A stretch of 64,000 bases of DNA from an uncultured Acidimicrobiia bacterium (GTDB lineage Bacteria; Actinomycetota; Acidimicrobiia; Spongiisociales; ZC4RG35), in assembly GCA_963840175.1 (NCBI GenBank), contig CAWIXU010000004.1, positions 9,288-73,287 of the forward strand, in the 5' to 3' direction. A program made the translations under genes and the position numbers. This document shows positions 1 to 64,000 of this stretch, piece by piece. Below the pieces are notes generated by a model. That model searched no databases. It had not been told where the DNA came from and was given only the letters and a program-made list of their open reading frames with translations. Position 1 is the stretch's first letter; every line of letters begins with the position of its first letter.

Positions 1-1
1 A

Positions 2-400
2 CTCGACATCTCGATTGACAATGCACCCGGCACCGTGATCATCGCTATGACCCAGGCCGGCAACTCTGGTACGCCTGGTCTGTTGGATACAGGTGACATG
101 ATCCTCATCTACTTCTCTGAGGATGTCGTTGTCGCTCCCGGTGCCACGATCCAGCTTCTCGACCCTGACGGAACCACCGCCACGATCACATGTGGCGTCG
201 AGGCGACTTGCGCCTCCGGTCCTGCCGACCAACTGTTGATCACGATTACGGTTGCACTGCCCACCTCCGGCGGGACCACGCCCGGCATCGAGAATCAAGC
301 CGAGATAACAGCGGTAGGCGGCATCACCGCCTCTGACAACGGCGCTGCGGTCAACACTGCGGATTCGAGCGTTTTCGGCCGCACATTCTTCGACTTCTAG
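2..400 (+). CDS. 3' end of a secreted/surface protein of unknown function (5' part outside window)
   Basis: Frame open from nt 2 (LDISIDNAPGTVIIAMTQ...) to TAG 398-400. Thr/Gly/Ala/Ile-rich composition with no catalytic motif recognised. Directly upstream of two SLH proteins. Confidence 0.3.
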   Translation, partial: LDISIDNAPGTVIIAMTQAGNSGTPGLLDTGDMILIYFSEDVVVAPGATIQLLDPDGTTATITCGVEATCASGPADQLLITITVALPTSGGTTPGIENQAEITAVGGITASDNGAAVNTADSSVFGRTFFDF

Positions 401-441
401 CAGTTGACTCCAACGGGGAACGTGAGCGTCCCCGGCAACGT

Positions 442-1154
442 TTGACACCCATAGTGTCGAGGAAAATTTCGTTTGGGTTGGTGGTCGTTCTGATGGGCCT
501 TCTTGCGTCGCCGGCACAAGCTCATCCGGTTCCGATCGACACCTCGAGCGTCGTGCCCGGCGACCACCCCCAATGCGGGGTTCACCGACATTGGAACCTT
601 CGACGCCACTACTCGGACCGCCATCAACTGCCTGGCGGCCTTCGGGATCGCGCAGGGCACCACTGCTGCGACCTATTCGCCCAACGCCAACGTCGCCCGC
701 TGGCAGATGGCGCTCTTTCTCATTCGTCAGGCCGAGGACCATGGCCTGACCGTACCGGCGCCGGTCGATCAGGGTTTCACTGATATCGGCGGGCAGGCAG
801 CGGCGACGCAGAGACGCGATCAATCAGGTCGCGCAGATGGGGATCAGCAGCGGGACGACTTCGACCACCTTTTCGCCCAACGACACTGTTACTCGCTGGC
901 AGATGGCGCTTTTCCTCTATCGACTCGCCGTTCAGGCCGGGGTGACGGTCACCGACGATCCAACCAGCGATTCCTTTAGCGACATCGGCGGCTACGGCAG
1001 CGAGATTCAAACCGCGATCAACTTCCTCGCGGACGGGCACATCGCGCTCGGAACCAGCGAAGGAATCTTCTCGGGCAACGTAAATGTCACCCGCTGGCAG
1101 ATGGCTCTGTTCATCACCCGGGTGCTGGCGGCCGACGGCATCACGCAGTCGTGA
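442..1154 (+). CDS. SLH-domain cell-surface protein (3 SLH repeats), frameshifted
   Basis: TTG 442 plus signal peptide SRKISFGLVVVLMGLLASPAQA. Three SLH-type repeats: FTDIGTFDATTRTAINCLAAFGIAQG..VARWQMALFLIR; FTDIGG..GISSGTTSTTFSPNDTVTRWQMALFLYR; FSDIGGYGSEIQTAINFLADGHIALG..VTRWQMALFITR. Read-through needs 2 frame changes (ORFs 442-783 -> 503-979 -> 837-1154). Confidence 0.75.
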
Positions 1155-1163
1155 GAGCGTATC

Positions 1164-3255
1164 ATGCGCCGTTTGCTCATCGTTTCGGCAGTTCTTGCGC
1201 TGATTGCGGGCTGATGGCACTGCCCGCCGGAGCGTTGGTTTCGGAGGCCTGTCCTTCCAACCTGCCCGCCGGAGCGCTTCGGTGACCTGGCCGGTTTGAG
1301 CACGGATGCTCTGGATGCCATCGATTGCGTTGCCCATTACAAGATCGCCGCAGGGCACCTCGGCGACGACATTCAGCCCCAATTCTTCTGTGCTTCGCTG
1401 GCAGATGGCCCTGTTCCTCACCAGAACGGTGACGGCTCTGGGAGTCGCCCTTCCCAACGGAGCCGGCCAGGGGTTCACCGACATCGGATCTATGCCGGCG
1501 GCGACCCAGACCGCCATCAATCAGATCCGCCAACTCGGAATCAGCCTGGGGACCTCCGCTACCTCCTTCAATCCGTTGGGCGTGGTGCCTCGCTGGCAAA
1601 TGGCTCTGTTCCTGAGCCGGCTCCTCTCAAGCGGTCGGGGTCTCGCTTCCCAACGGCGCCAGCCAGGGCTTCACCGACATCTCGGCCATGCCGGTCGGCG
1701 ACGCAGGTCGCGATCAACCAACTTCGCCAGCTCGGCGTCGCGCTGGGGACAACCGCAACCAGACCTTCTCGCCGTTCAGCGACGTCTTGCGCTGGCAGAT
1801 GGCGCTCTTCCTGGCCCGGTCGACCGAAACCGCGGGTGGCCTTCCGTTCCGATTGGCGGCGGCGCTGCCAGTCGACCACTCCTCCGACCTCGGGCACTGT
1901 CCCCTTGACAGTCACCGTCCGCAATCCCGACGGAAGCCTGGCCAGCGAACCGGCGAGTGGACGTGTTCGTGGCGGCATCGCTCGACAGCAACGGGCGCTG
2001 CGTGCTCGACAACGATGCTCATGTCAACGGAGGCGATGCCGGCTACCAACAGCAACTGCGTGCTCGACAACAATGATCCGCTCACCAATGGCAGCGGTGT
2101 CGTTACGGTCAACCTCACCCACGATGCGACTCAGGAAGTCGACACGATTTACTCCTGGACCGGCGAGGTCGGTGAAACGTTCGATTTGCAGGACGTCCGA
2201 GGCGAAGCGGCGGTGCAGCTCACCTGGGGTGCGGCTCCAACCGGCCTGACCATTCCAGCAAACGTGAGCGCCGGATTTGCTACGTCAGCGCGCGGTCAGG
2301 GCCCAACTGATCGGGCCCGGGGGCGCGGCAGTGACCCTGTCGGGTCAGAACATCAGGTTCACGGTGCAGCGCGGCAACCAGACGATTCTCACCCAGACGG
2401 TGATGACGGGAGCCGACGGAAGCGCCACTCTGACCTATGTCGGTCCGGCCGATCCTTCGGGAGCAGACGACGCTGCGGTCATCGACAACGTCACGGCGTT
2501 CTGGGACAAGGACCGGGACAACGTCGACGACGGCGCGGCCGAGTTCGACGACAGCGGCACCGTTACTTGGGACGATCTGCTTGCCCCCGGTTACGACCGC
2601 CTCTCTCAGCCAGAGTTCCTTGACGCAATCTGCTCGGCGAGTTCGCTTCGATCTCGGTCACCGTCCGCGACAAGTTCAGTCAGCCGATCGCCAACGCCGA
2701 CGTGACGTTCCAAACCGGACAGGCCGGTCCGACCGTCGCCACCACCAACGCCTCTGGAGTGGCCACTTTCCAGTACACGGTCGTTGGCACGGGCTTGGCG
2801 GACTCCGTCGACGCCAGCGTGGATCTCAATCGAGATGGCGACACCAACGATCCCGGTGACCTGGGCTTTGGTGGCGTCACCAACCTCATTCACTACTGGG
2901 TCGCGACCGCGCCGACGCTGGCCGGGATTGACCGTCGTTCGATGTGATTGCGATCAATGCCGGCGCCAACACGGTCGACGTCGTCCAGATCGGCACCGCC
3001 AACTACTACCGGCTCACCTACGACGCGAATGACCAGTTCAATGTCAACGGGGGTGGCTCGGAGAGCCTGGACCAGTTCGAGTCGGCATTGGTCGGTATGC
3101 TGCTTCCGGATCTCGACGGTCCGGGAGGCCAGGAGCTGATCGACCAATCCCTACTCCACACCTGCCGGCGCCGCCAGCGCGTTCCTGCTGAATACCTAGA
3201 GCACGCTCTGGCTAGCGCCTCGAGCGATTTTTGGGACGCGGAGCCGTCGCCGTAG
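1164..3255 (+). CDS. Large surface protein: signal peptide + 3 SLH repeats + Ig-like beta-rich C-terminal region, heavily frameshifted
   Basis: ATG 1164 MRRLLIVSAVLALIAG. SLH repeats ..SVLRWQMALFLTR, ..VVPRWQMALFLSR, ..SDVLRWQMALFLAR in ORFs 1306-1908, 1296-2249 and 1688-2623. Later fragments (TVTVRNPDGS, GSGVVTVNLTHDATQEVDTIYSW, NIRFTVQRGNQTILTQTVMTGADGSATLTY, NASGVATFQYTVVGTG) look like bacterial Ig-like strands. At least 8 frame changes; 3' end uncertain (3199 or 3255). Confidence 0.55.
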
Positions 3256-4292
3256 GGGCTCGGGATGTCTCCGAGGTCGCTCCCATCCGACTTCGAGCAG
3301 GCGGCGCGCCTCGGCGCCGATCCCGGCACCGGCCGCGACTCGGACCGCGAACGTGCCCATGACCTCGGGGCGTTCGGTCGAGTTGCGGACCACCACCAAG
3401 GGTCGTTTCAAAACCGACACCTCTTCGGCGATCCCTCCCGAATCTGAAATCATCAACGCCGCCTCGGCCTCGAGAGCCAAGAAAGTCGCGATAGCCGATC
3501 GGTTCAACGACCATGAGCTTGTGCGAGCAGAGGCTCCGAGGCCGAACTCCTCGGCCCGGGCGACCGAGCGAGGATGCAACGGCAGCAGGACCGGCAGTGG
3601 CAGCGAGGCGAGCTCGATTCAGAATGGTCGAGTACGTGTCTCGCGTCGTCGACATTCTCGGGTCGATGAAAGGTCGAGAGGATGAAGCGGCCGCTTCCAC
3701 GCCGATACCGAGCCAGAATTTCTCCTACGATCCGTGGGAGCAAGGCGGCGACCGCTTCGACCACCGTGTTGCCTGTCAACGCCACCCGTCCGCCGCGATC
3801 CCCTCGGCGTGCGAGGTTGTCGACCGAAGTTGGCGTCGGGGCGCAACAGAGGTTGCTCAGGTGGTCGGTGACCACCCGGTTGTGCTCCTCGGGCATCCCC
3901 CAGTCGTGGCTCCGCAGCCCCGCCTCGATATGACAGAGGAAGACCGAGCGGGCGTTGGCGGCGAGGGCTCCGGCCGTCACCGAGTTGGTATCCCCTTGAA
4001 CGAGGACGGCACGAGGCTGCTGCTCGGCGAATAGTTCGTCGAGTGAAGCGATGGCCGAACCGATCTGTTGGCCGCGGCTGATCCCGCCGACTTCGAGGAA
4101 GGTGTCAGGGGTTGGGAGGCCGAGGTCGCGGAAGAAGACCTCAGAGAGGTTGGGGTCGTAGTGCTGGCCGGTATGGACGACGAAGGCGGCGTCGCCCAGC
4201 AGATGAATGATGTGGGAGAGCTTGACGATCTCGGGCCGGGTACCCAGCACGACCGCGATTGACTTGGGTGGGAATCCGTACTGGTTGGTCAT
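3196..4292 (-). CDS. wecB: UDP-N-acetylglucosamine 2-epimerase (non-hydrolysing), frameshifted
   Basis: IAVVLGTRPEIVKLSHII, HTGQHYDPNLSEVFF, VLVQGDTNS, IEAGLRS in ORF 3504-4292. C-terminal DSGGIAEEVSVLKRPLVVVRNSTERPE in ORF 3196-3579. Confidence 0.85.
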
Positions 4293-4306: not shown

Positions 4307-5477
4307 ATGCTACGGGCTCTCCTCCTTGTTCTTGAGCTGGCCCTCATCGCCCTCATCGCCTACAACCTGCGTTGTCGCTCTGCTTTGGATGGAGAAATCC
4401 CGTGACGAGGGCCAGCGGCAGTCGCGCAGCCACCGCTTCGTCATCGTGATCCCCGCTTACAACGAGGAGCGCGTCGTTGTCGCCCGGCCGGTCGCCGATC
4501 TGACACCACAACTAAGGGAAGGTGACGAGTTGTGGGTGCTCGCCGACCGATGCACCGACGACACGGCCGAGGTGGCGCAGGCGGCCGGAGCGCGCGTCGA
4601 CCGAACGCTCCGAGCGGGCCCGACGGAAAAGGCACCGGCACTGGCATGGTTCGTTGCCAAGCGACCGCTAGTTAGCGACGAGGCGCTCGTCGTGATCGAC
4701 GCCGACAATCGGGTCCCCGGCAAGCTCCTCGATCGGTTCGGCGCCGAACTGACCGACGGGCACTCGGTGCTGCAGGCCTACCTCGATGTGGCCAACCCCG
4801 ACGAGTCGGCGTTGGCGACCGCCTCGGCACTCTCGTATTGGGCTTCGAACCGCATGGTCCAGCTGGCGCGGGCCAACCTGGGTTGGACAGCCGATCTCGG
4901 CGGCACCGGCATGTGTCTGACTTCTCGAGGCGCTGAACGCACGCGGGCGGATTCGGGACATCGTTGGTCGAGGACCAGGACCTCGGAGTTCGCTGCTTTC
5001 TCGCCGGACACCCGGTCCGTTGGCTGCACGACGTTCGAATCGCCGATGAGAAACCTCCCACGGCCACCGTCGCTGTACGCCAACGGTCACGCTGGACAAG
5101 TGGACGTCGTCAGGTCGCTCGCCGTTGGTTGGAGAAGGTTGTCAGCCGAGCGACAGCCGGCGTCGCTTGATCTCGCGCTTGCGTCTGGTGCAACCTTCGC
5201 GGATGGGGATGGCGTTGCTCAGCGCCGCGCTGGCCGTGGCCTCGGCTCTCGGCGCGTCCTCTGCTTGCCCTGGCCGTTGTGGACGGCGGTTGCGCTGGTC
5301 CAGTTGCTCGCCCCGATCCCGTTTCTGATCCGCGACCGGGTGCCGTCTCGCTATCTGAGGAAATATCCGCTGCTGGCGTTGCTCCCACTGCTCAAGATTC
5401 CGGGCACGCTTCGTCGCAACCGGGAGTGGTATCACACGCCCCACGGGTTATCGGACGGTTATCCGACTGGGCCCTGA
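4307..5477 (+). CDS. Membrane glycosyltransferase family 2, frameshifted
   Basis: ATG 4307 gives TM segment MLRALLLVLELALIALIAYNL (frame differs from ORF 4326-5477). GT2 core FVIVIPAYNEE..VVIDADN. EDQDLGVR and QRSRWTSG (Q/RxxRW) motif in ORF 4964-5170. C-terminal TM helices. Confidence 0.7.
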
Positions 5478-6432
5478 CGGCCCGGGGCGAGCGGAGTAGC
5501 CCGCGAACCAAGCCCGACGCCGTAACTCAGGTGCATGATCGCGATTGACCCAATACCTCGAGCAGCCGTCCCCGACTCGCCGAGGGCGAGCACCACGATC
5601 CAGACGACGATCAGGAGAAGCAGCGGCCACCAAATCGTGGTGAGCAGGCCGAAGGCGACCGCGACGACCAGGCCGAGAACCAGGGCTAGCGGAGCCAGCG
5701 GTCGCCATGACGGGAATTCGCCGTTGAGATAGAGCATGTCGGCCTTGCCCAGTCCGTATCGGTAGAACTGGCGCCACAGAGCTGCCGGTGTGGACCGGGG
5801 TCGATAGGTCGTACGGATACTAGGATCGATGAGGATCCGTCCTCCACGTTGGCGAAGTCGATAGAAGAAGTCGGCATCCTCGGCGACACGAGACGGCAGT
5901 GATCTCATCCCGCCGTTGGCGAGGAAAGTCTGCCCGGGTCATGGTTCCGAGATAGACGGTGTCACCTTCGGTTGGCTCCTCGGTGTGATGAAACGGCGCT
6001 GGTCCGATTCCGAACTTTCGAGCGGTAGGCCGCCGCGACCGCCCGGCCAAAAGCGTTGTCGCCTTGCGGACGCATCGGACCGCCGACCGCTGCGGCTCCC
6101 GAAGCGAGGAGTGCTTGCACCGAACGAGTTACGTAAGTCAGGGCCGTAGGTGGTGTGAGCATCGGCTCGGATCAAGACGTCGGCTGCGGTGTTGTCCGCG
6201 GCGAGGTTGAGCGCGTGCGATTGCAGGCGTCGGGGATTGTCGACGACGCGCAACCTTGGTAGGCGAACCAGCCAGCGGGCAAGATGTTCGGGAGTGGCAT
6301 CGGTGGAACCGCCGTCGGCGACAACGAGTTCCCACTCCCCGGCGTAGTCCTGTTCCTCAATGCTCTGCGAGGCATTCGTCGATACTCCCGGCCTCGTTGA
6401 AGACCGGAAGCAACACAGCGACCGAGGGCAGT
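5459..6432 (-). CDS. Glycosyltransferase family 2 with C-terminal TM region, frameshifted
   Basis: PSVAVLLPVFNEAGSIDECL (rc of ~6370-6420), LRVVDNPRRLQSHALNLAADNTAADVLIRADAHTTY (ORF 5939-6253), AEDADFFYRLRQRGGRILIDPSIRTTYRPRST followed by TM helices (ORF 5459-5908). Start codon not resolved. Confidence 0.7.
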
Positions 6433-6450: not shown

Positions 6451-7802
6451 ATGACGGATTCGGCCTGGCGCCAGCGGTTGTTTCTGGCAATGGTGGCGGT
6501 GCTCCCGCTTCATACCGTTTATCTAAGCGCCTGGATTTCGTGGAAGCCGTTCATGGTCCTCCTGGCCGTCCTGGCCCTGTGGGACCTGGGCGACGGCATT
6601 CGGCTCCGGCAGTGGCCATGGCACAAGCGAATCACGCTCGCGTTCCTTCCCTTGATGGTGGCGGTTGCGATCGGGTTCCCAGGTCCTGAGCTATCGCGAA
6701 CGATTCATCCGGCTCGCCTTAGCGCTTGTCGTCGGGTTCGGGGTGCTGGCAGTTACCGAGCGACGACTGCGCGGCGTCAGGAATGGGAGCGCGCACCCTA
6801 CGGGTCATCTTCTGGTCCGCGGCCGCCATGGCGGTGACCGGCCTGATCTTCTCGGTGCTGCTTCTCGGCCTCGGGGGGGACGAAGGAATCGACTACCTCA
6901 CAGGGTCGCGCGGTTACGACCTTCCTCTCCTCGACAAAATTGGCAAGCCCGCCTATCTCTTGTCGGGTTTCCTCGCGCTTTCCAACTGGCATCAGGACCC
7001 GGGCTATGGAGCCGCTTGGGCGGTCCTCTGGGCGACATTGGCCCTCATCGCTTCCCTCCGCGGCCTCGGAACCAAAAGTCCTCTGATCGACGGAGCGATC
7101 ATCGGTGTTCTTTGGTCCGCAGTGGTGATGGGATTCTCCCGCACCGGGTGGGTGGCGCTGGCCGTGTCGTTGGTTCTCGTGGCCTGGAAGGTGACACGGC
7201 GAGGATTGGTCAAACGGATCGTCGCTGCAACCGTTGCCCTGATCTTGTCGATGGGGCTTCTCTTCGTCGCTGATGTCGAGAATGTCGGGGGGGAGCTGCC
7301 ACTTCAGTTCGCCTTTCGGCTCCGTCAGGGCTGGGACCTCCTGGCATCGATCACCGGGCTGTTCGAGTCATCCGCAGCCTTCGAGGACCAGTTCCAGCCA
7401 TCCGAGCAACGGGCCGACGTCTGGCCGGAGTACTGGCAACTGTTCCTCGACCACCCGGTCACCGGGGTGGGCTTCGGGGTTGGCTGGGAAACCAACTCCA
7501 TCGGCCAGGAACCGCACAACTTGTTTCTCGAGCTCGGAGCAGAAACCGGGATCATCGGTCTCGTCGCTTTTGCGTTGTTGTTGGGCTTGATCATTCGCGC
7601 CGGCAGCGGAGTTCTCGGGGCGGTGGCGCTGACCGTGTCGTTCTTGCCTGCGTTCACCCAGACAGTGCTCTTCGAACCAACCTGGTGGTTCGCCGCCGGC
7701 CTGTTCTTGGCCGCGGGAGGGAAGTTCGAGGATGCCGCGGAGATGCCTGTAGAGTCGTCTGACGAGTCAGGGGTTGTCACCCCAAAACAAGCTGCTGCCT
7801 AG
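6451..7802 (+). CDS. O-antigen ligase / polymerase-like (Wzy_C family) polytopic membrane protein, frameshifted near 6.7 kb
   Basis: About 10 hydrophobic segments. Characteristic loop GVGFGVGWETNSIGQEPHNLFLELGAETGIIGLVAFALLLG in ORF 6726-7802. N-terminal TM fragment in ORF 6451-6837. Confidence 0.65.
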
Positions 7803-7816: not shown

Positions 7817-9727
7817 TTGCGTCTGCCTGGAAAGCTGGAAGGAGCGATTTTGCGCTCGCCAATCAGACAACTCCTCGCTGTGATTTTGGCCTTCGGGCTT
7901 CTCGGCGCGAACCTGCCCGTCGCCCACGCGCAGACGACCGATCCGACGTTCACCGTCACCGGATCGGGATGGGGTCACATGGTGGGAATGTCCCAATACG
8001 GAGCGAGGGCGCTCGCCGCGAATGGATCTTCGGCTGCCGATATCACCGGCTTCTATTACGCCGGAACCACCGTGCGTCAAACCACGGACGTCGTTTCCAA
8101 CTTCATGGTCACCGATCCCGATCCGCTCTGGATCGGACTGTTGCAGAACCGGTCGACCTTCAACTTCCGCGTCGACGGCGCCGGACCGGTCGGCCTTTGC
8201 AAAGCCAACGACGGCGAGGGCGAATGTCCCACCCAATTCGCCCTCTCGGGAGAAACCTGGGAGTTCCGCGCGTTGGGCGGCGGTGCCTGCCAGTACTTCA
8301 AAGCCGGGGTGGCAGTTGGCAATCCCGGAACCTGTCGCGGGGCCCTGACCTGGGACTTTGGCACGGGAACGAAGATCTTCTCACCCGATAACGGGCGGAC
8401 ATATGCCCGGGGCATCATCCGCTTCCGTCCGGCCGGAGCCGGATTCCATGTGGTTCTCGAAATCAACATGGAGGGATATCTCTATGGGCTGGGGGAGATG
8501 CCCTCGAGCTGGCCGATGGCGGCGATGCAGGCCCAGGCGATCGCGGCGCGCACCTACGCCTTGCGACAGGCATTGCGATACGGGCCGGAAGAGACGCTTG
8601 ACGCCTCCCGGCAGGCGACCTGTTGGTGTCAGCTGGTCTCCACGGTGGCCGATCAGGCGTACGTGGGTTGGGGCAAGGAGGTGGAGTCGCAAGGAAACCG
8701 GTGGGTCGAGGCAGTCAACACCAGTGCCGGCCAAGTGATCACCCACCCCCAAGCACCGGACTCGACAGTGATCGTCGCCTACTACGCCTCCTCCACGGGA
8801 GGCCACACCGATAGGAATGTCGAGGGCTTGGGCCACACCAATCCCTTGCCTTATCTGGTGGCGACGCCCGACCCCTGGTCCGTGTCAGCCGCCGCGGCTA
8901 ACCCTTTCGCGACCTGGACGCGCACGCTGACCGCAGCCGAGATCGCCACGGCCTTCGGGCTGGAATCAGTCACAGGCGTGGAGGTGACCCGACGCAATGG
9001 CTCCGGTACGGTGGCAGAGGTCACCATTGCCGGCACGCTTGGCGGACAGTCGACACTTCTTGTGCGCAGCGGCCGTAGTTTTCGTGATGCGTTTGCGATG
9101 CGTTCCACTGCCTACGCGATCAGCGGCGGGAGCGGGATCGGGACCGCCATCTGTGACGGCGTACCGCCCCCGGCGGGGTTCACCGATGTCGCGGTCGGCA
9201 ACATCCATTCCGAGGGAATCAACTGCCTGGCCGCCCTGGAGATCACCACCGGGACCACCGCCACCACGTTCTCGCCCGCCCAGGCGGTGAGCAGGTGGCA
9301 GATGGCAGTCTTCTTGATCCGCACCGCTCACGCCCTCGGGATTGCGGTGCCGGCACCCGTGCCGCAGGGATTCACGGACCTAACCGGCATGGCTCTCACC
9401 ACCGTCGATGCGATCAACCAGCTCAAACAACTCGGGGTCACCTCGGGAACGACCCCGACGACCTTTGCCCCCAACGCCAGCGTGTCCCGCTGGCAAATGG
9501 CGCATTTCCTCACCCGTCTTTTCGCGATCGCCGGCGGCGCACCGGCCGGAGCTGGCGCAAGCTTCAGTGATCTCAACGGCCTGAGCCCCGAGACGATCGC
9601 GGCGATTGGCCAGCTGGCCGGTCTGGGGATCACGCTCGGGACGGGTCCCGGGACCTTCGGCCCCAACGACGTGGTCACCCGCGAACAGATGGCGACCTTC
9701 CTCACCCGCCTGATCCGGCTCCTTTAG
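7817..9727 (+). CDS. SpoIID/LytB-domain protein fused to 3 C-terminal SLH repeats (intact ORF, 636 aa)
   Basis: Signal sequence. GSGWGHMVGMSQYGARALAANG, EMPSSWPMAAMQAQAIAARTYAL and YYASSTGGHT are SpoIID-type motifs. C-terminal FTDVAVGNIHSEGINCLAALEITTG..VSRWQMAVFLIR, FTDLTG..VSRWQMAHFLTR, FSDLNG..VTREQMATFLTRL are SLH-type. Confidence 0.85.
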   Translation: MRLPGKLEGAILRSPIRQLLAVILAFGLLGANLPVAHAQTTDPTFTVTGSGWGHMVGMSQYGARALAANGSSAADITGFYYAGTTVRQTTDVVSNFMVTDPDPLWIGLLQNRSTFNFRVDGAGPVGLCKANDGEGECPTQFALSGETWEFRALGGGACQYFKAGVAVGNPGTCRGALTWDFGTGTKIFSPDNGRTYARGIIRFRPAGAGFHVVLEINMEGYLYGLGEMPSSWPMAAMQAQAIAARTYALRQALRYGPEETLDASRQATCWCQLVSTVADQAYVGWGKEVESQGNRWVEAVNTSAGQVITHPQAPDSTVIVAYYASSTGGHTDRNVEGLGHTNPLPYLVATPDPWSVSAAAANPFATWTRTLTAAEIATAFGLESVTGVEVTRRNGSGTVAEVTIAGTLGGQSTLLVRSGRSFRDAFAMRSTAYAISGGSGIGTAICDGVPPPAGFTDVAVGNIHSEGINCLAALEITTGTTATTFSPAQAVSRWQMAVFLIRTAHALGIAVPAPVPQGFTDLTGMALTTVDAINQLKQLGVTSGTTPTTFAPNASVSRWQMAHFLTRLFAIAGGAPAGAGASFSDLNGLSPETIAAIGQLAGLGITLGTGPGTFGPNDVVTREQMATFLTRLIRLL

Positions 9728-52704: not shown

Positions 52705-52742
52705 GTCTTGGCAGCGAACAGGTGTTCGACTAGGCTGTCGGA

Positions 52743-53670: not shown

Positions 53671-53673
53671 TCG

Positions 53674-54023
53674 TGGAGGCGGCGGGAATCGGACCCGCGT
53701 CCCATGAGTCGTCAGCGCCGGCATCTCCGAGCGCAGCCGTCGGCGAGCTTGTCGGCAAGAAGGACCCCAACGGCGGGCTTCCCACTCGCTTATCCGGAGT
53801 TGATCTTTGCCCTCCGGTCCCGGATCCCGGAGGACGCATCCTGCATTGCGACGCCCGATTCCGGCGAGGCAGGCGCCCACCGGGCGGACGGGCTGCGTTA
53901 TTTAGGCAGCCAGTGCGAAGTTGTCTTCGGCACTTGTGTTTGTTTCCGGCTCTTTAACGAGGTTCCGGAGACCTCGGCTCGCTTCCGACGCATCAACACT
54001 CATGGTCGAAACCATTTCGCCCC
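53674..54023 (-). ncRNA. ssrA: tmRNA (SsrA), about 350 nt
   Basis: 5' GGGGGCGAAATGGTTTCGACC (rc of 54003-54023). 3' GGACGCGGGTCCGATTCCCGCCGCCTCCA (rc of 53674-53702). Internal tag ORF ..GCC GAA GAC AAC TTC GCA CTG GCT GCC TAA ATAA = (A)EDNFALAA*. Confidence 0.9.
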
Positions 54024-54085
54024 CATGGGCTGATCGCAATTCTACGGGTATTCAGAGAATCCGTGTTCGCCTATCTTCTGCGGAA

Positions 54086-55226: not shown

Positions 55227-56077
55227 CGGATCCACTGCGTCGACTCGATGCGAGCGGCCTCGACGGCAGATCCGGACTGCCGCCTCGACATGCGTCGGAG
55301 GACCCTTGGCGCGACCGCCATACCGATGACCGCCCAGCCGGCGAGGACAGCCACCGTCTGCAGGGTGCGCCAGGACCCGCCGATCTCCAAAGCGGCCGCC
55401 GCTTCCGGTAGGAACGCCGAGCGCATACCGAGCCCCAGCCAATACATCGGAAAGACCTGGGCCACCCCCTCCAGCCAATCCCACAGATCTTGGATTGGAT
55501 AGAAGATTCCCGATATGCCGAGGAGCACCAGGATCGGCAGCATTCCCCAGGTTCCGACCTTCTGCACGCCCGGAACCGTCGCCCCGATGATGATCCCGAT
55601 CGGCAGGGTCGCAAGCAGACCGAGCACGACAACCCAGGCGAACGTGAGCCAGCCGTTGAGACCGTTGTACATGAAGTTGTCGAACAAGAAAGAAGCGGGG
55701 ATCAGAATCACGGCGAGCGAGGGGAGCAAGCCAAGTGCGTTTCCGAAGATGTGGGCCGACATGTATCCGACGATTCCGTACGGTGCCGCCTTCGATCTCA
55801 GCACGGTTCCGTCCTCACGCTCCATTGCCAATGAATACGCGGGTCCGACGACCAGGCCGAAGGCGATCATGGCCCCCAGGAGGCTCGGCATGGCCAAGGT
55901 CGGGTAGGACAGAGTGGTTCCTTCCACTTCGGTGTTTCGACGAAGGAATAGGTAGCCCAGAGTTGCCAGGGCCATGAACAGGAAGAAACCCTGGTCCTGG
56001 GGACTCTTGAGGCTCAGGACGAATTCCGTCCAGCCTCGCTTGAGGCCGTTGCGAACCGCATGCAGACGGGGATTCAT
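55223..56077 (-). CDS. ABC-2 type exporter permease (intact)
   Basis: 284 aa with 6 predicted TM segments. ATG overlaps the ATPase stop (ATGA). Confidence 0.7.
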   Translation of the reverse strand: MNPRLHAVRNGLKRGWTEFVLSLKSPQDQGFFLFMALATLGYLFLRRNTEVEGTTLSYPTLAMPSLLGAMIAFGLVVGPAYSLAMEREDGTVLRSKAAPYGIVGYMSAHIFGNALGLLPSLAVILIPASFLFDNFMYNGLNGWLTFAWVVVLGLLATLPIGIIIGATVPGVQKVGTWGMLPILVLLGISGIFYPIQDLWDWLEGVAQVFPMYWLGLGMRSAFLPEAAAALEIGGSWRTLQTVAVLAGWAVIGMAVAPRVLRRMSRRQSGSAVEAARIESTQWIR

Positions 56078-56992
56078 TTCTCGACCTCCTCAAATCCGGT
56101 CGTACTCGCTTCACCAGCCACTTCGAATTGCTGGACCATCGCTAGATAGGTGTCTTCGAGAGTTGCCCGTCTTACCTCGAGTTCTTCGACCGCATCGCCA
56201 TGTTCGTTCAACAGCGACCGGACGAAACGGCGTCGCGTCCGGCGTGGTTTCGACATGGCGCTCACCGTCGAGCCGCCACCGGACCTCGGAATCGCGCGTC
56301 ACCCTTCGCGCCAGGTCCTCGACTGTGCCGTCCGCCACGATCCGGCCGCCGGCGAGGATCAGAATTCGATCGGCAAGCTTGTCGGCCTCGTCCAAATCGT
56401 GAGTGGTCAAGAGAATCGTTGTGTCCTCAAGCTGGGAGAGCTGAAGAACGAGCCCGTGAAAGTCGCGCTTGGCTTGCGGGTCGAATCCGGCGGTGGGCTC
56501 GTCGAGAAATAGCAGCTCGGGCCTTCCGACGATCCCGATGGCGACGTCGAGTCGACGTCGCTGTCCACCAGAAAGCGTGCGGATCTTCTGGTGGGCCTGC
56601 CCCTCGAGACCGATCATGGAGATCAGTTCCTCAGGCGGGTAGGGGCGGCGCCGTTCCGGTGTCGAGTAAGGCTCGTAGTAGCGGCCGAGATGCTCGAGCA
56701 AACCGAGCGGCGTCCAGCGGGCGTGGTCGCGCCAAGATTGCAGCACCACCCCCACCCGGGCTCGCCAATCCTCGGGGGCATCTTGCGGATTCGTGCCGAG
56801 CACATCGACCCGACCGGCCGAAGGAGATCGAAAACCTTCCAGGATCTCAATCGTGGTGGTCTTGCCCGCGCCATTGGGACCCAGCAACGTCACGACCTCG
56901 CCTCTGCGCACCTCGAAATCGACGCCGTTGAGTACATCGACGTCGCCGTAGCGCATCCGCAAGCCTTCGACTTCGATGACAGGCTGGTCCAT
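56074..56992 (-). CDS. ABC transporter ATP-binding protein (DrrA-like), one frame change near 56265
   Basis: Walker A GPNGAGKTT, signature LSGGQRRRL, Walker B LLFLDEPTAGFD. C-terminal tail in ORF 56074-56265. Confidence 0.85.
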
Positions 56993-57018
56993 GGGCGCAA
57001 ATATTCCTACGGGGCACT

Positions 57019-57420
57019 TTACGAAGCCGTTAGTCGGGACTGAGCGCGCCGGATCTCCTCCTCTTCGAGCGGGTGGACGTAGAGGTCATAAGCCATCCAC
57101 AACGACCGTGCCCAGGGGTAGAAGAACAGCGGCACCAGACCGGTGAACGAGACGACGACAATCGTGAGCCACGTCCATGGGACATCCGGCCAGGTCAAGG
57201 CGAGAAAGAGGCCGAAGGACAGAAACATCGCCAAGATGGCCAGGATCGTGTTGAAGATCACCGCGCCCACCCAGTAGCCCGGCTCGCGTTCGAAGCGATG
57301 CCCGCAGCGGGGGCAGAAATCAGCTAGCGCCCACCAGCGGAAGATTCCTCCCTGCCCGCAATGGGGGCACTGGCGGCGGAAGCCGCGGGCCAACTGAACA
57401 GTGAGCTTCGGCCGGGTCAT
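57019..57420 (-). CDS. DUF983-type zinc-ribbon membrane protein
   Basis: MTRPKLTVQLARGFRRQCPHCGQGGIFRWWALADFCPRCGHRFEREPGYWVGAVIF followed by 2 TM helices. Confidence 0.6.
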   Translation of the reverse strand: MTRPKLTVQLARGFRRQCPHCGQGGIFRWWALADFCPRCGHRFEREPGYWVGAVIFNTILAILAMFLSFGLFLALTWPDVPWTWLTIVVVSFTGLVPLFFYPWARSLWMAYDLYVHPLEEEEIRRAQSRLTAS

Positions 57421-57448
57421 GTCACTCAGGCTAAGTACCGTGCTGGAC

Positions 57449-58078
57449 ATGAGGCCGCCCCGAATCGAGTACGAGAGCGCCCCGCTCGATCTGATCGACC
57501 TTGACCCCGACCCTTTCGCCCAGTTCTCCCGCTGGCTCGACGACGCCTTCGCCGCCGAAGTGCCCGAACCGGAGGCCTTCGTCCTCTCGACAGTCAGTGC
57601 AGGCGGCAGTCCTTCCTCGCGCACTGTTCTCCTGAAGCAATTCGATCAGGACGGCATCGTGTTCTACTCGAACTACCGCAGTGCCAAAGCAGTCGACCTC
57701 AGCGGCGAGCCGCGAGTGGCCGCTTTGTTCCTGTGGCTGCCAATCCACCGCCAGGTCCGGGTCGAGGGCCGGGCGGAAAAGGTCGAGGCGGAACTCTCCG
57801 ATGCATACTTTGCCACTCGCCCTCCCGAGGCCCGGCTGGCCTCGGCCGCTTCCCCGCAAAGCCAGGTGGTCGTTAGTCGGGAGGAGCTCGATGGAATGCT
57901 CGAGCTCCTAACCCGCCAATATCCCGACGGCAATGTTCCCCGCCCCGCCCATTGGGGCGGCTACCGCATCAAGCCCACGCTGTTCGAGTTCTGGCAGGGG
58001 AGGCGGGCACGATTTCACGACCGTTTCCGCTTCCGACTCGACAAGGAGCGCTGGCTGATCGATCGGTTGGCGCCATGA
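57449..58078 (+). CDS. pdxH: Pyridoxamine 5'-phosphate oxidase
   Basis: DPFAQFSRWLDDA..PEAFVLSTV..PSSRTVLLKQFDQDGIVFYSNYRSAK..RQVRVEGRAEKV..YFATRP..HWGGYRI..FEFWQGR..R.HDRFRF. Confidence 0.9.
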   Translation: MRPPRIEYESAPLDLIDLDPDPFAQFSRWLDDAFAAEVPEPEAFVLSTVSAGGSPSSRTVLLKQFDQDGIVFYSNYRSAKAVDLSGEPRVAALFLWLPIHRQVRVEGRAEKVEAELSDAYFATRPPEARLASAASPQSQVVVSREELDGMLELLTRQYPDGNVPRPAHWGGYRIKPTLFEFWQGRRARFHDRFRFRLDKERWLIDRLAP

Positions 58079-58809
58079 AGCTGGATGTCGTCGGTTCCTC
58101 GGGCACCTATCCCACCCGTGGCCGCCCCGCCGCCGGCTATCTGATTTCTCAGGGCGAAACTCGGATCTGGTGCGACACCGGGCCTGGAACTTTCGTCACG
58201 TTGCCACTCGAGATCGACCTCGTGAGCGCGATCGTGATCTCACACGAACATCCCGATCACTGGCTCGACCTGGTCACCGCCTATCACGCGATTTGCTACG
58301 GACCGAACCCCCGCCAGGGGATCCCAGTCTTCGCTCCCCAGGCGACAATCGAGCACATGTTGAAGATCGGCGGGGAAGACGAATACGAAGGAACCTTCGA
58401 CTTCAAAGCGGTGGCAGGAGGCGACTCGATCGAGATCGGCGGGATCGACGTCACTTTCGCCTGGTCGGATCACTCGGTTCCCACCGTCGCTTCGCGCTGG
58501 GAAGCCAACGGTCGGGTCCTCGCCTACAGCGCTGACACCGGCCCCGGCGGTGACTGGGAGAAAGTGGCCGCGGAAGCTGACCTTTTTCTCTGCGAGGCGA
58601 GCTATCAGGGCGACATCGCCGACTATGCCTATCAGCACCATCTCACCGCGTCTCTCGCCGGATCGATTGCCCGCCGCCAGGGAGCCAAAAAGCTGATGCT
58701 CACTCACATCCCCCCACATCTCGATCCGACGCTTTCCATCAATGAAGCCGAGACTTCCTTCGATCGACCGGTGGAGCTTGCCGTCCCCGGGCTGAGCCGG
58801 AAGATCTAG
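58075..58809 (+). CDS. MBL-fold metallo-hydrolase
   Basis: MKLDVVGSSG..ISHEHPDHWLDL (HxHxDH motif). ATG overlaps the pdxH stop (ATGA). Conserved position upstream of rph-rdgB. Confidence 0.75.
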   Translation: MKLDVVGSSGTYPTRGRPAAGYLISQGETRIWCDTGPGTFVTLPLEIDLVSAIVISHEHPDHWLDLVTAYHAICYGPNPRQGIPVFAPQATIEHMLKIGGEDEYEGTFDFKAVAGGDSIEIGGIDVTFAWSDHSVPTVASRWEANGRVLAYSADTGPGGDWEKVAAEADLFLCEASYQGDIADYAYQHHLTASLAGSIARRQGAKKLMLTHIPPHLDPTLSINEAETSFDRPVELAVPGLSRKI

Positions 58810-58814
58810 CGCGC

Positions 58815-59519
58815 ATGCCCCGGGCCCGGCCGTTCGACGAGATCCGTCCCCTGCGGATGCATCTGGGGTTCACCGACATGACCCCGGGGTCGGTGCTGAT
58901 CGAGATGGGCCGCACCCGGGTCCTTTGCACCGCGGTCATCGAGCTCGAGGTTCCGCGCTGGATGCGCGACAGCGGCAAAGGCTGGGTGACCGCCGAGTAC
59001 GGGATGCTGCCCGGATCGTCATCCGAAAGAATCGGGCGCGACCAGTACCAGAAAGGTCGCGCGCTCGAAATCTCCCGCCTCATCGGGCGAGCTTTGCGCT
59101 CGGTCGTCGACCCCACGGCGATGGGGGAGCTGATGGTGCGAGTCGATTGCGATGTCATCCAGGCTGACGGCGGCACCCGCACCGCGGCGATCACGGGTGC
59201 CTGGGTCGCTCTCCACCAGGCTTTCAGCGAGGCAATCGCCAAGGGTCGACTGGCCAGGAATCCGATCGTCGATCAAGTTGCCGCCATCTCGGTGGGGCTG
59301 GTCGAGGGGGAACTGTTGCTCGACCTCGAATACGAGGATGACGCCCGCGCCGAGGTCGATTTCAACGTGGTGATGTCGGGCCGGGGACTCCTCGTCGAAG
59401 TGCAGGGTTCCGCCGAAGGCGCCCCCTACACGCGGGAGGATCTCGACCGCATCCTCGATCTCTCCACTCTCGGCATCAACGTGTTGCTCGATGCCCAGAA
59501 ACAGGCGGTTGCCGAATAG
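58815..59519 (+). CDS. rph: Ribonuclease PH (intact)
   Basis: GSVLIEMGRTRVLCTA..GWVTAEYGMLPGSS..GRALEISRLIGRALR..DCDVIQADGGTRTAAITGAWVAL. Confidence 0.9.
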   Translation: MPRARPFDEIRPLRMHLGFTDMTPGSVLIEMGRTRVLCTAVIELEVPRWMRDSGKGWVTAEYGMLPGSSSERIGRDQYQKGRALEISRLIGRALRSVVDPTAMGELMVRVDCDVIQADGGTRTAAITGAWVALHQAFSEAIAKGRLARNPIVDQVAAISVGLVEGELLLDLEYEDDARAEVDFNVVMSGRGLLVEVQGSAEGAPYTREDLDRILDLSTLGINVLLDAQKQAVAE

Positions 59520-59529
59520 GGATCGACCA

Positions 59530-60112
59530 GTGATCGAGCGGCTCAAAATCGATCGAGCTGGTCGTCGCTTCGAAGAACCCCGACAAGATCGCCGAGATCG
59601 AAGCCGTGCTGGTTGCCACTGGCGCGGTGGGCGAGATCGTGCAGGGTCTCGACTGGCCCGACGTCGAGGAGACCGAGGACACTCTCGAAGGCAATGCGCG
59701 CCTGAAGGCACAAGCGGTCTACGACGCGACCGGCTTGCCGGCGTTGGCCGACGACACCGGTCTTTTCGTCGACGCCCTCGGCGGTCTGCCCGGAGTGAAC
59801 ACCGCTCGTTACGCCGGTCCCCACGCGAGCTATACCGACAACGTCGCCCTCCTGCTCCAGACTTTGGGCGACCGGGACGACCGTCAAGCAGTCTTTCGCA
59901 CGGTGATGGTGATAGTCGGAGCCGGCAGGAGCCTGGTCGCCACCGGCGAGCTCAACGGCCAGATTGCGTTCGGACCGAGAGGCGCCAACGGGTTTGGCTA
60001 CGACCCGATCTTCGAAGTCGAGGGCCGCACCCTCGCCGAGATGTCCGAAGATGAGAAGAACGAGATGTCGCACCGCGCCCGCGCTATTCGGGCACTGGTC
60101 GCGCTGCTCTAG
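59530..60112 (+). CDS. rdgB: Non-canonical purine NTP pyrophosphatase (RdgB/HAM1), one frame change near 59555
   Basis: LVVASKNPDKIAEIEAVL, EETEDTLEGNARLKA, ALADDTGLFVDALGGLPGVNTARYAG, GANGFGYDPIF, EKNEMSHRARA. Confidence 0.85.
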
Positions 60113-61039
60113 CCCTTGGTCGCTCCGGCGGTGAGGGCGCCGATGATCTGTTTCTGGGCGATCAGGAACACCGCCACGATCGGGAGCGCACCCAGCAGCG
60201 CCGTCGCCGCCAGCAGACCCCACTTGGCGTTGTAGCCCTCACCGAGGAAGGCCTGCAGGCCGACCGGGAGCGTGAACTGCTCGGTTCCCTGCAAGAGGAA
60301 CGACGCCAGGATGAACTCGTTGAAGATTCCGACGAAGCTGATGATGAAGATCACCGCGAGCATCGGGCGAGCCAGGGGCAGGATGATGCGCGAGAAGATT
60401 CCGAACTCGGTCGCACCGTCGATCACCGCCGCCTCGTCGAGGGAGGCCGGGATCGAGTCCAGGTAACCCTTGATCAAGAAGGCGTTGAAGCCGGCCGCGC
60501 CACCGAGATAGACCAGGATCAGGTAAAGGTGGGTGTTGAGCCCGACGGCGGGGACGATGCCGCCGATCTGCTGCGCCAGACACAAAGAAGGCGATGAATC
60601 CCAGGAATTGCGGGAAGATCTGCAGCACCAGGAGCAACGTCAGCAATCCCCGCCGTCCTCGGAACCGAAGGCGAGAGAAGGCGTACGCGGCGAACGACGC
60701 GATGATCACGTTGAGCCCGGCCGCGACCAGCGCCACCTTGAAGCTGTTGAAGAGCCACGTCGGGACTGGGGCGACCGTGCTGCGGAAGAGCTGGACGAAG
60801 TTGTCGAGCGTGACCTGCTGGGGGATGAGCCGCGAGGCACCCAGGTTGTCGACGGCGTTGAACGAGGCCGAGATGATCCACACCACCGGAAACAGCGCGA
60901 ACAGGGCGGCAATGATGGCGACCAGGTGCCGCCAGCCGCGCAGCTGGAACCCGCGCTTGTAGTGCGCCCAGCGAGCCTCCCGGGTTGTCTCCGCTGGCCT
61001 GGAGGCGGTGCCGACGACAACGCTCGAATCACCCGCCAT
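60109..61039 (-). CDS. Carbohydrate ABC transporter permease (MalG-like), one frame change near 60580
   Basis: EAA loop DEAAVIDGATEFGIFSRIILPLARP with 6 TM segments. ORFs 60239-61039 and 60109-60585. Confidence 0.8.
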
Positions 61040-62679
61040 AGATCTCCTCCAGTCGCTTGGTGAGTCGGAAGCTCGTGGCCGACGAGACGGCGAGGATCAC
61101 GAAGATGATCACGATGACCGCCGAGGCGAGGGCGAATTGATTGCCGCGTCCCGCTCCTTGGGCCAGGTTGAAGGTGAAGGAGATCAGCAGGTCCGACGCC
61201 CCCACCGGGACGTCGTAGCCGCTCAGAGGCGGCCCACCTCCGGAGAGCAAGAAGATCAGGACGAAGTTGTTGAAGTTGAAGGCGAAGGCCCCGATCAGAA
61301 GCGGCGCAGTCGACACCAGCAGAAGCGGCAACGTGACCGATCGAAACACCTTGAACGGGTTGGCACCGTCCACCCGAGCTGCTTCCTGCAATTCGACCGG
61401 AACTGAGGTCAGAGCGCCGGATGAGATCAAGAACATATAGGGGAAACCGAGCCACAAGTTGACAATGAAGATGGCAACGAGGACCCACCATGGGTTCCCG
61501 AGCCAGTCGACTCCCGGTATCCCGAACGTTTCGAGGATGCCGTTGACCTTTCCAAACCGATCATTGAGCAAGCCGCGCCAGATCAGGATCGAGAGGAAAC
61601 CCTGGGATGGCATAGGGGATGATGTAGATCGACCGGTAAAACGCCCGGCCCTTCATCGCCTTCGTCTTGGAGGGCAATGGCCAGGACAAGACCCAAACGC
61701 GAAGTTGAGGATCACCGAGCCGAATGCGAAGACGATGTTCCACGTAAAGACTCGTAGAAAGGGGCCGCGGATTCGTTCGTTGGTGAGAATGTTGGCGTAG
61801 TTGTCAAAGCCAACCACCGAGCGCCAGCCGATGAAGCGGCTCTCGATCGCCGAGGTGGGAACCTGATTGCACACCCCACCAGAACAGGTGATGCTCGTCT
61901 CCGTTGCCGCGATCGCGGTTCGGGCAACGTCCTCTTCGGGCACTCCGTCGCAGAGGAAGTTGCCCGTGCCGGCCACACAGACGCGTTGGGTCTGGTTATC
62001 GGTGAGGGTGTCGGTGGCCGGGTCATAGCTAAAGCGCTGCCCGACGTTGCGGACATTGACGCTGGAAAGCGTCTCGAGAGCTGCCTGCCGGCCATCGGGC
62101 AAGTCGAGGATCAGGTCCTGCAAGGTCCCTGACATCCCGGCCAGACGCAAACGGGGAATCAACGTGTAATCGCCCAGCGTTTCGGGGGGAGCGGCAGGAT
62201 CGATCGCGGCGTCCCCGGTGTTGAGGTGCGAATCGGTTATCGGATCAGAATCGCTCGGCCGCGGAGTGCCAAAGAACGGCTCGGCTTCGCCGCCACCGAT
62301 CAGGAAGGCGAGCTGGCCGTCGTCAGTGGTGTAGACGGACAGCGGCAGAGTTTGATCGGTGCCGTCGCTTGCCATCGGGATCGCCTCGAGGGCGCTGATG
62401 GCCTGCGGCTTGGAGAGGAAGTTGCCAGTTCGCCAGTTGGTCAGCGAAACGTAGAAGGTATAGAAGACCGGGTAGACGACGAAGATCGCCATCAGGATCA
62501 GGCCGGGAGTCAACCAACGCGAAGCCGAGGCTCGCGGGCTCAGATAGGCCCAGTTGACGAGCACCGCGGCCCCAATCAGAAATCCGAACAAGGGTCCAGG
62601 ATTGATTGGCAACGAGCTGGGGGATCGCAAAGATGATCAGCGCGTCGAAGATCGCGACCGCGATGGTGCGAATCCACAT
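61029..62679 (-). CDS. Carbohydrate ABC transporter permease (MalF-like) with a ~240-aa extracytoplasmic insert, frameshifted
   Basis: ATG 62679 (AAGGA upstream) MWIRTIAVAIFDALIIFAIPQLV. Large loop in ORF 61653-62630. EAA loop QEAARVDGANPFKVFRSVTLPLL in ORF 61029-61613. Confidence 0.8.
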
Positions 62680-62755
62680 TCCTTTCGCGGTTCGCTGCAA
62701 ACCGCGGTCCCACGCCACCTGTTCCTCCTCCCACCAGGCGTTCGAGTTGTGGAGC

Positions 62756-62781
62756 GAGCCCACCACCGAAGTGGTGGGCTC
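62756..62781 (-). promoter_or_regulatory. Intercistronic stem-loop with UUCG tetraloop between the binding-protein and permease genes
   Basis: Transcript sense is GAGCCCACCAC-UUCG-GUGGUGGGCUC, a perfect 11-bp stem. It lies 12 nt after the binding-protein stop and has no U-tract. Confidence 0.6.
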
Positions 62782-62792
62782 ACTCGGATGGA

Positions 62793-64000
62793 TCAGCCTC
62801 CGGCGATAGCCGAGCGGACTGCTTCGGCCGCCGTCGTCATCGCTTCGTCCGCGGCGATTTCGCCGTTGCGAATCAGCAGCATGTTGTCGCCAAGGGGACC
62901 CCACACCGAGGCCATCTCGGGCACGTTGGGCATCGGAATCCCGTTGCCTGCCGCCTCGGCGAAGGTCTGCGACTTGTGGATCGGAGCTCAAGCCGTCCTG
63001 CACCGCCTGCCAGGCCGTCCCGCGGGGATCGGCGTCGTACATTGCCTGCATGACTTCATCGGTGGCGATGAAATCGAGCAGGAAGGTCTGGGCCAGGAGC
63101 TTCTGCTCGGAGAAGGCCGAGATGAAGAAACCCTGTGCTCCCACGAACGGCTGGGTCGGCTGGTCACCGATCTGGGGAATCACCGCCACATCCCAGTTGA
63201 CCGTGGTCTGCTCGCGCAGGGCGCCGAGTTCCCAGGGCCCGGTGATCCAGAACGCCGAGGACCCCTCGAGGAAGAGGTTCTTGGCGGTGTCATAGTCGGT
63301 CGACGCAACAACTCCCGCCGACACCTGGTCGGCCAGATATTGCGCTCCCTGGATCGCCTCGGGAGTGTCGAGACGGACTTCGCTCGGGTCGTAGCTCCCG
63401 GTCTCAGGGTCGTAGGCGAAGATCGAGCCGCCATAGGCGGAGACGAACGGGTAGTTGTGGTAGGCGTCGGTGGCTGCGCCGCCGCCGGGGATGCCGAGGC
63501 AGGTATCGACCGCGGCGGCTTCGCAGGCTGCCGCCACCTCGTCGAAGGTCGCCGGGGCCGTGGGGACCAGGTCGGTGTTGTAGTAGAGGGCGATGGTTTC
63601 GGTGACATAGGGCACCGCATAGGTCTGACCCTCGAAACCGAAGGCATTGACCGCAACGGGTACGAAGCTGTCGGCCTTGGCGCCGAGATCGATCGGATCG
63701 ATGACGCCGTTGGCGACGAGCTCGCCGGTCCAGTCGTGGGCACCGACGAAGATGTCCGGACCCTCACCGGCGGGGCCGGCGGTCGAGACCTGGTCACGGA
63801 TCTCGCCGAACGGCACCAACTCGACGATTACCTCGACTCCGGTCGCCTCGGTGAAGGCGGGAGCGATGGCCTGGAGCGGCTCGACCCGCCGTTCGTCCGC
63901 CCAGATCACCAGCGCTTCACCGGCCGCGGCCGCGGTGGTTTCGGCGGCCGCAGAGGTAGTCGTTTCCTCGACCCCGGCGGTAGTGGTCGTTGCCAGATCG
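62793..64000 (-). CDS. Carbohydrate ABC transporter substrate-binding protein (MalE-like), 5' end beyond window, frameshifted near 62.95 kb
   Basis: LVIWADERRVEPLQAIAPAFTEATGVEVIVELVPFGEIRDQV, FVGAHDWTGELVANG, FWITGPWELGAL. The Thr/Ala-rich linker at the window edge implies an upstream lipoprotein signal. Confidence 0.8.

Follow-up and report, generated by a model that had tools for sequence, protein, structure and literature searches.

Long-read consensus errors that spare homopolymers very probably account for the broken reading frames of an Acidimicrobiia metagenome contig

Long-read assemblies whose consensus retains insertions and deletions (indels) yield fragmented gene calls, and polishing is needed for low-coverage bins (PMC9262707). 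In assemblies of nanopore or PacBio continuous long reads (CLR), one-base indels, the lengths of which are not multiples of three, split conserved genes and leave the truncated open reading frames (ORFs) of the 'IDEEL'-type signal (PMC9262707, PMC12007338); their rate is set by consensus quality, Illumina relatives are clean, and the truncated proteins spread into databases. Errors of another origin were described for Trypanosoma brucei, in which collapsed divergent alleles introduce indels near allelic variants (PMC8445201). Here we analyse a 64-kb window (64% G+C) in which frame changes interrupt most genes; the contig to which it belongs (73,689 bp; NCBI and ENA) comes from an uncultured member of the Acidimicrobiia. 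The window shows all the properties listed above for long-read assemblies, and its assignment to the known problem of gene-fragmenting long-read indels, with an atypical signature (insertion-biased, G/C-biased and homopolymer-sparing), and not to a biological feature, appears very secure.

The signature is atypical in several respects. Textbook long-read indels are dominated by homopolymers and are often deletions, whereas in the window isolated bases make up 78% of the resolved insertions, there are three extra bases for each missing one, and G or C accounts for 84% of what is inserted. The error density, up to ~1 per 100 nucleotides (nt), is also unusually high for a deposited contig. In the collapsed haplotypes of T. 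brucei, apparent frameshifts arise where allelic variants close by disturb the alignment of reads (PMC8445201); the insertions of the window adjoin synonymous, presumably variable sites more often than chance, and the indel density follows local divergence. However, T. brucei is a diploid eukaryote and that case was verified with phased reads, whereas the heterogeneity proposed for the window would lie among co-occurring bacterial strains and is read from sequence statistics. Two biological systems also bear a likeness to the window. Genomes with pseudogenes of reductive evolution, of the Mycobacterium leprae type, share with it the many frameshift-interrupted genes. True decay is marked by nonsense codons, larger deletions and a relaxed ratio of non-synonymous to synonymous substitution (dN/dS), while essential genes are spared, and none of these marks is seen in the window. 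The programmed +1 frameshift of release factor 2 (RF2) has its canonical site in the prfB gene of the window, where it explains one frame change, but the other ~260 come without such a signal.

As references we used two sister contigs of neighbouring ENA analyses, the nearest relatives among the collections covered, ERZ25039586:contig_4077 (131,907 bp) and ERZ25039588:contig_49612 (312,145 bp), overlapping pieces of which span the whole window; proteins from both are present in the 90%-identity clusters of window ORFs, as found by exact look-ups. From their Flye-style contig names alone, we infer that both are long-read metagenome assemblies. A literature search for the accessions of these ENA analyses found nothing. 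They share 99% identity with each other and 83-96% nt identity with the window, in a mosaic manner (~83% at 24-41.6 kb and ~95% at 42-60 kb), and they alone serve as close references at 1-34 kb. A short-read assembly of the same strain was sought among the cluster members (Logan, JGI, ENA), and none was closer than these two contigs; the top GTDB relatives of the SecA fragment are uncultured Acidimicrobiia metagenome-assembled genomes (MAGs) with 80% amino acid (aa) identity. The search with UDP-glucose dehydrogenase returned no close relative, though the alignment to the sister contigs shows one at 84% identity.

All annotated proteins of contig_4077 and contig_49612 were aligned to the window with a local protein-to-DNA aligner that tolerates 1- and 2-nt frame changes and was checked on a synthetic case. 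Greedy selection of the alignments gave 64 gene segments, covering 58.7 kb of coding DNA, in which '+1' denotes one extra base in the window and '-1' one base short. A three-way MAFFT DNA alignment of the window and the two sister contigs served as an independent check. Two other approaches were abandoned: a frame plot based on G+C at the third codon position (GC3), with an ORF filter on GC1/2/3, gave frame calls that were too noisy at 64% G+C and was replaced by the reference-based alignment, and tblastn with the stop-to-stop ORFs of 80 GTDB loci as queries was informative at 34-60 kb only and also produced hits of off-frame and antisense ORFs, so that the annotated genes of the close relatives were used in its place.

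The coding DNA contains 261 frame changes (174 '+1', 24 '+2', 51 '-1' and 12 '-2'), about three quarters of which are extra bases. At least one is found in 45 of the 64 segments, and in 42 of the 54 that have 100 codons or more. The frameshift-aware alignment against relatives, with the context of each junction tabulated, had been proposed as a check by the original prediction, and it bore out the claim that most genes need frame changes, the extent of which had been understated. The corrected products give essentially end-to-end alignments (76-100% aa identity), and only 2 of ~19,500 aligned codons are in-frame stops. The MAFFT alignment is concordant, with 180 window-private 1-nt insertions in coding DNA. 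When the same pipeline was applied to pairs of Illumina MAGs (L001, L002 and L003; 86-88% nt and 88-91% aa identity), it returned 0-0.2 events/kb, as compared with 4.4/kb over the coding DNA of the window, which places the effect far beyond method noise. In addition, the junctions in secA, prfB, ftsE, ftsX and an acyl-CoA dehydrogenase gene recur against two independent Illumina MAGs, and thus do not depend on the error-prone sister references.

The frame changes are unevenly distributed, with 8.7 events/kb at 24.2-41.6 kb and 0.9/kb at 41.6-60.1 kb. The essential genes that had been named as broken are indeed so: we count one event each in secA, the 3' part of prfB, ftsE and ftsX, three in the PBP1A gene, 12 in the accA-like gene, five in pccB, nine in manB and six in ahcY. 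The genes that had been described as intact (P450, hpf, the response regulator, M23 and smpB) have no shift, and most of secA is uninterrupted, with its single break. It had also been claimed that the most GC-rich stretches break every few hundred bp. The link to G+C holds (Spearman rho of 0.62 between shifts/kb and G+C per gene), but the spacing does not, as the breaks are denser, with a median gap of 83 nt between events at 24.2-41.6 kb.

We consider it highly likely that these frame changes would be consensus errors of a long-read metagenome assembly and not mutations in the organism, as the original prediction had proposed. Five results agree in this: purifying selection, the scarcity of nonsense codons, similar indels in coding and non-coding DNA, the different breaks of the sister assemblies, and the clean Illumina controls. 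Substitutions between the window and its relatives number 1103, 674 and 4113 at codon positions 1, 2 and 3, respectively, and the per-gene dN/dS is 0.01-0.3, including in genes with 10-25 shifts, with the exception of two short or poorly conserved ORFs. The window-private coding indels of the three-way alignment comprise 270 with a length that is not a multiple of three and 11 with a length that is. In the same alignment one-base insertions occur at 3.77/kb in coding and 2.96/kb in non-coding DNA, and this similarity indicates that selection never acted on the insertions. The sister contigs carry frameshift errors of their own (0.75-1.08 relative events/kb), and in different genes. In contig_4077 secA (864 aa) and prfB are intact, while manB, smpB and the PBP1A gene are split; in contig_49612 the latter three are intact, while secA is in four pieces (nine shifts relative to contig_4077), prfB is in two, and the sugar ABC transporter and alpha-amylase genes are shattered. 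With the stray bases taken out, each gene of the window reads full length under strong purifying selection, and the underlying genes appear to be intact and functional.

Genuine massive pseudogenisation, by reductive evolution or in a dying lineage, would also place several disruptions in each of many genes, as in degraded genomes. We regard it as very improbable, given the low dN/dS of the broken genes and the presence of 2 nonsense codons against 261 frameshifts. Large deletions are absent, and gene order and lengths are conserved. Moreover, the lesions strike essential single-copy genes (secA, prfB, ftsEX, ahcY and accA), they are as frequent in non-coding DNA, and assemblies that are 99% identical are nevertheless broken in different genes. 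Alternatively, the extra bases could be real, with programmed frameshifting on a wide scale, transcriptional slippage or RNA editing as the means of bypassing them. Such recoding would account for proteins that stay under selection while their DNA is out of frame, and the window does contain one true programmed +1 site. If true, it would amount to pervasive frameshifting or RNA-level deletion editing, unknown in bacteria, with ~75% of the genes out of frame; to our knowledge no widespread recoding system of this kind exists in bacteria. The 261 sites have no common slippery motif or shared context, they are not kept in relatives at 83-96% nt identity, the 99%-identical pair of sister contigs differs at dozens of positions, and comparable indels are found in non-coding DNA. 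We therefore take recoding to be practically out of the question.

The programmed site is located in prfB, where 25 codons come after the ATG at 48147 and lead to CTT TGA C (48222-48228); a GGAGG that resembles a Shine-Dalgarno sequence lies upstream of it (48213-48217). Of all the frame changes in the window this appears to be the only real one, distinct from the artefactual extra base at 49062-49064 in the same gene. A conserved slippery or stop-codon signal is present at this shift site only; no motif is common to the remaining sites, which relatives lack. The heptamer CTTTGAC occurs in 12 copies on both strands, against 5.1 ± 2.2 in shuffled sequences, and only the prfB copy, at 48221, is an RF2 site; the excess is probably a codon-usage effect.

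For the sequence context of the extra bases, each '+1' event was placed at the single base whose removal gave the highest identity to the reference within 8 codons to either side, a method that recovered both simulated homopolymer-extending and simulated random insertions without bias. The 138 positionally resolved 1-nt insertions comprise 108 isolated bases, 18 in runs of 2, nine in runs of 3 and three in runs of 4. Isolated insertions thus make up 78%, against 49% expected for random insertion with the same base frequencies (p = 2e-12), and those in runs of at least 3 make up 9%, against 22% expected (p = 7e-5). The excess of isolated bases is unchanged under stricter identity filters and within each third of the window. 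Among the resolved insertions, 84% are G or C, compared with 63% in the composition (p = 8e-8).

These values contradict the claim that the junctions fall in runs of 2-5 identical bases, as homopolymers are depleted and not enriched. The ftsE example is a run event, with one extra G in the GGG at 49475-49477. In contrast, the extra A of the mutase gene (16026) is isolated and adjoins a GGGG run without being part of it, and the lpdA-like gene lacks an isolated G at ~17711; the secA (46019-46021) and prfB (49062-49064) events could each be either an isolated base or part of a 2-base run. Classical homopolymer-length miscalls, as in nanopore or 454-type data, are the mechanism implied by the earlier reading and the residual error that is best known from published work (PMC9262707, PMC8812927), and a minority of events do extend runs, such as the ftsE event, CCCC at ~12533 and GGG at ~5515. 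However, runs of at least 2 hold 22% of the resolved insertions against 51% by chance, the shortage in runs of at least 3 persists under the identity filters with a placement validated by simulation, and extra bases exceed missing ones three to one, which makes this origin very unlikely as the main source. The rule that a lack of homopolymer enrichment would point to genuine pseudogenisation would have misled, as the errors here avoid homopolymers.

The patterns suggest instead that the reads behind the consensus were heterogeneous or gave thin coverage. Indels would arise where the reads entering the consensus disagree, owing to co-assembled strain variants, to thin coverage or to both. At a variable site, mostly a synonymous, G/C-rich third codon position, the polisher would keep both alleles side by side or drop a base. 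Such a step would explain the isolated G/C insertions, their adjacency to synonymous sites and the tracking of synonymous divergence by indel density. In 72 of 107 isolated cases the inserted base would be a synonymous alternative of an adjacent base, against 51.8 ± 4.8 in shuffles matched for trinucleotide context, none of 2000 of which reached 72; simulations with third-position-biased divergence gave 46%. Shifts/kb correlate with the synonymous divergence (pS) to the sister contigs, taken as a proxy for within-sample diversity, with a rho of 0.79, and a partial rho of 0.66 given G+C. The partial rho for G+C given pS is 0.30; the raw correlation with G+C is real, but G+C is for the most part collinear with how far the window locally diverges from its relatives.

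A possible if rather doubtful alternative is residual read error of a random kind in a contig with thin coverage, without strain heterogeneity and with an indel density that follows local depth. Indel density does vary about ten-fold along the contig, and low-coverage long-read bins are known to retain indels (PMC9262707). The sister contigs show local patches in which private substitutions and indels co-occur, e.g. in secA of contig_49612, and the private substitutions of contig_49612 are less biased to the third position (40/27/94 at codon positions 1/2/3), a hint of some plain error. What this alternative does not predict is the synonymous-alternative behaviour of the inserted bases (72/107 vs ~52), their depletion in homopolymers, and the tight link to synonymous divergence after control for G+C. 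We also asked whether the divergent patch of contig_49612 is window-like, as strain mixing between these lineages would make it; it is not, and the differing alleles are private to contig_49612.

Several points weigh against a consensus artefact that stems from disagreeing reads. The artefact case rests on sequence comparison and not on reads, which also counts in favour of pseudogenisation, and the references, contig_4077 and contig_49612, are error-prone themselves. Isolated G/C insertions that spare homopolymers are not the textbook residual error of nanopore or PacBio data, and the generating step is uncertain. The keeping of both alleles covers only part of the insertions, as the excess over the null is ~20 of 107. 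The correlation with non-synonymous divergence (pN) may be due in part to misaligned codons beside the shift sites. Codon position 3 holds 15 of the 23 uniquely placed deletions, but the method alone yields 39-45% in simulation, and this nominally significant test was downgraded once the simulation had exposed the method bias. A proposal that concerns method only, that the positions of consensus indels mark true strain-variable sites, so that unpolished long-read error maps would hold recoverable microdiversity information, is one we put forward tentatively, as plausible but somewhat less than probable.

The genes of the window, with the number of shifts in each, are the following.

451-1151, plus strand: SLH/Big-like surface protein gene (Pfam label); 2 shifts, all extra bases.
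1492-3196, plus strand: SLH/Big-like surface protein gene (Pfam label); 11 shifts, all extra bases.
3198-4292, minus strand: UDP-GlcNAc 2-epimerase gene; 5 shifts.
4307-5496, plus strand: GT2 glycosyltransferase gene; 12 shifts.
5467-6416, minus strand: GT2 glycosyltransferase gene; 7 shifts.
6451-7799, plus strand: Wzy_C-like gene; 2 shifts.
7850-9724, plus strand: SpoIID/SLH gene; 0 shifts, 98% aa identity to relatives.
12179-14752, minus strand: PBP1A gene (transglycosylase, transpeptidase and PASTA domains); extra bases near 14026, 13158 and 12533.
14827-16374, plus strand: methylmalonyl-CoA mutase gene; isolated extra bases C 15899, C 15985 and A 16026.
16374-17741, plus strand: dihydrolipoyl-dehydrogenase-like flavoprotein gene (lpdA-like); 7 shifts, one of them the isolated G missing at ~17711.
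20154-21909, minus strand: biotin carboxylase/BCCP gene (accA-like); 12 shifts, dN/dS 0.05.
21912-23462, minus strand: carboxyltransferase gene (pccB); 5 shifts, dN/dS 0.08.
23476-29290: six genes, for biotin ligase (6 shifts), dienelactone hydrolase (10), LytR_cpsA_psr (14), UDP-glucose dehydrogenase (10), CofE (3) and CofD (11).
29377-33674, plus strand: genes for an 877-aa membrane protein (23 shifts) and a DUF5719 protein (13 shifts).
34526-36885, plus strand: gene for a 789-aa conserved membrane protein; 25 shifts, dN/dS 0.11.
36850-41523: GT2 glycosyltransferase gene (minus strand; 12 shifts), manB (9), Trm112p (0) and PGI (9).
40275-41523: ahcY; 6 shifts, dN/dS 0.07.
42425-45415: low-error block with the P450 gene (minus strand; 0 shifts), hpf (0), the response regulator gene (0; 100% aa identity to relatives) and a 187-aa ORF with a +1/-1 pair at 43834/43858.
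45529-48121, plus strand: secA; one extra base at 46019-46021, which leaves ORFs of 186 aa and 676 aa.
48147-49281, plus strand: prfB; one artefactual extra base at 49062-49064, in the 3' part.
49394-51047, plus strand: ftsE, with an extra G in GGG 49475-49477, and ftsX, with an isolated extra G at 50375.
51047-52701, plus strand: M23 peptidase gene and smpB, both intact.
52743-53658, plus strand: radical-SAM gene region; 5 shifts.
53671-54024, minus strand: transfer-messenger RNA (tmRNA) gene, with the tag AEDNFALAA; 99.4% identity to contig_4077, no gaps.
54086-56992: acyl-CoA dehydrogenase gene (isolated extra G at 54855), ABC-2 permease gene (0 shifts) and ABC ATPase gene (extra C at 56229-56230).
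57022-60109: small ORFs, PNPOx gene, metallo-beta-lactamase-fold gene (base missing at ~58484), RNase PH gene (0 shifts) and Ham1 gene (1 shift, at 59557).
60112-63999, minus strand: sugar ABC transporter permease and solute-binding protein genes; 13 shifts.

Several of these products can be compared directly with intact orthologues. PBP1A has 96% aa identity to an intact orthologue of 857 aa, with a dN/dS of 0.07, and the SecA of the window shares 97% aa identity with that of contig_4077, which is intact at 864 aa. FtsE and FtsX, after correction, are 99.7-100% identical in aa sequence to their relatives. The frame-corrected product of the gene at 34526-36885, of 781 aa, aligns over its full length to proteins of 780-790 aa across Acidimicrobiia.

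In the sugar transporter region (60100-64000) missing bases exceed extra ones (8 '-1' versus 4 '+1'), whereas elsewhere in the window extra bases predominate. The polarity there is uncertain, since the sole close reference, contig_49612, is itself badly broken in this region. The tmRNA, which is the one RNA gene of the window, was tried as a non-coding probe for errors; it is clean in the window and so uninformative there, and the copy in contig_49612 has four gaps. In contig_4077 a 109-aa 'gene' is called on the strand opposite to the tmRNA (piece L085 18922-19251, corresponding to window 53704-54030). This is a spurious ORF, the 99% 'protein' identity of which to the window reflects the conservation of the RNA gene.

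Three other features of the window were observed. A direct repeat of ~560 bp (11569-12126 and 41563-42118, 81% identity) encodes a DUF559-type ORF; both copies lie within stretches that contig_4077 lacks there, and a related copy is found in contig_49612 (piece L083 13695-14255). In appearance the repeat resembles a mobile or repeated element of small size. The spacer between the response regulator gene and secA contains a near-perfect palindrome of 74 nt (45428-45500), 84% self-complementary, which may be a terminator or a regulatory hairpin. The pS versus the sister contigs is 0.3-0.5 in the block of cell-envelope, F420 and sugar-metabolism genes (24000-41600) and 0.08-0.25 in the hpf-secA-prfB-ftsEX-smpB block (42000-60000), a mosaic divergence that points to recombination, or to an envelope island that is hypervariable, in this population.

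The contig and its sister assemblies are unfit for claims of pseudogenes, gene loss or completeness. Truncated products of the contig have already entered the public protein collection, and several of them represent 90%-identity clusters, namely fragments of SecA (676 aa; 46094-48124), RF2 (246 aa) and the mutase (516 aa). Homopolymer context is unsafe for separating error from decay, because the errors here avoid homopolymers; the robust tests are dN/dS, the ratio of nonsense codons to frameshifts, the indel density of coding versus non-coding DNA, and the comparison of sister assemblies. The signature of isolated G/C insertions beside synonymous sites, with a density that tracks divergence, points to the polishing of a heterogeneous read set, and would be useful to anyone re-polishing third-party long-read assemblies of this kind. 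The window itself is an ordinary segment of an Acidimicrobiia chromosome, with a cell-envelope polysaccharide cluster, F420 genes, an acyl-CoA carboxylase and the actinobacterial hpf-secA-prfB-ftsEX-smpB-ssrA block; its biological interest is low, and its value is that of a data-quality warning.

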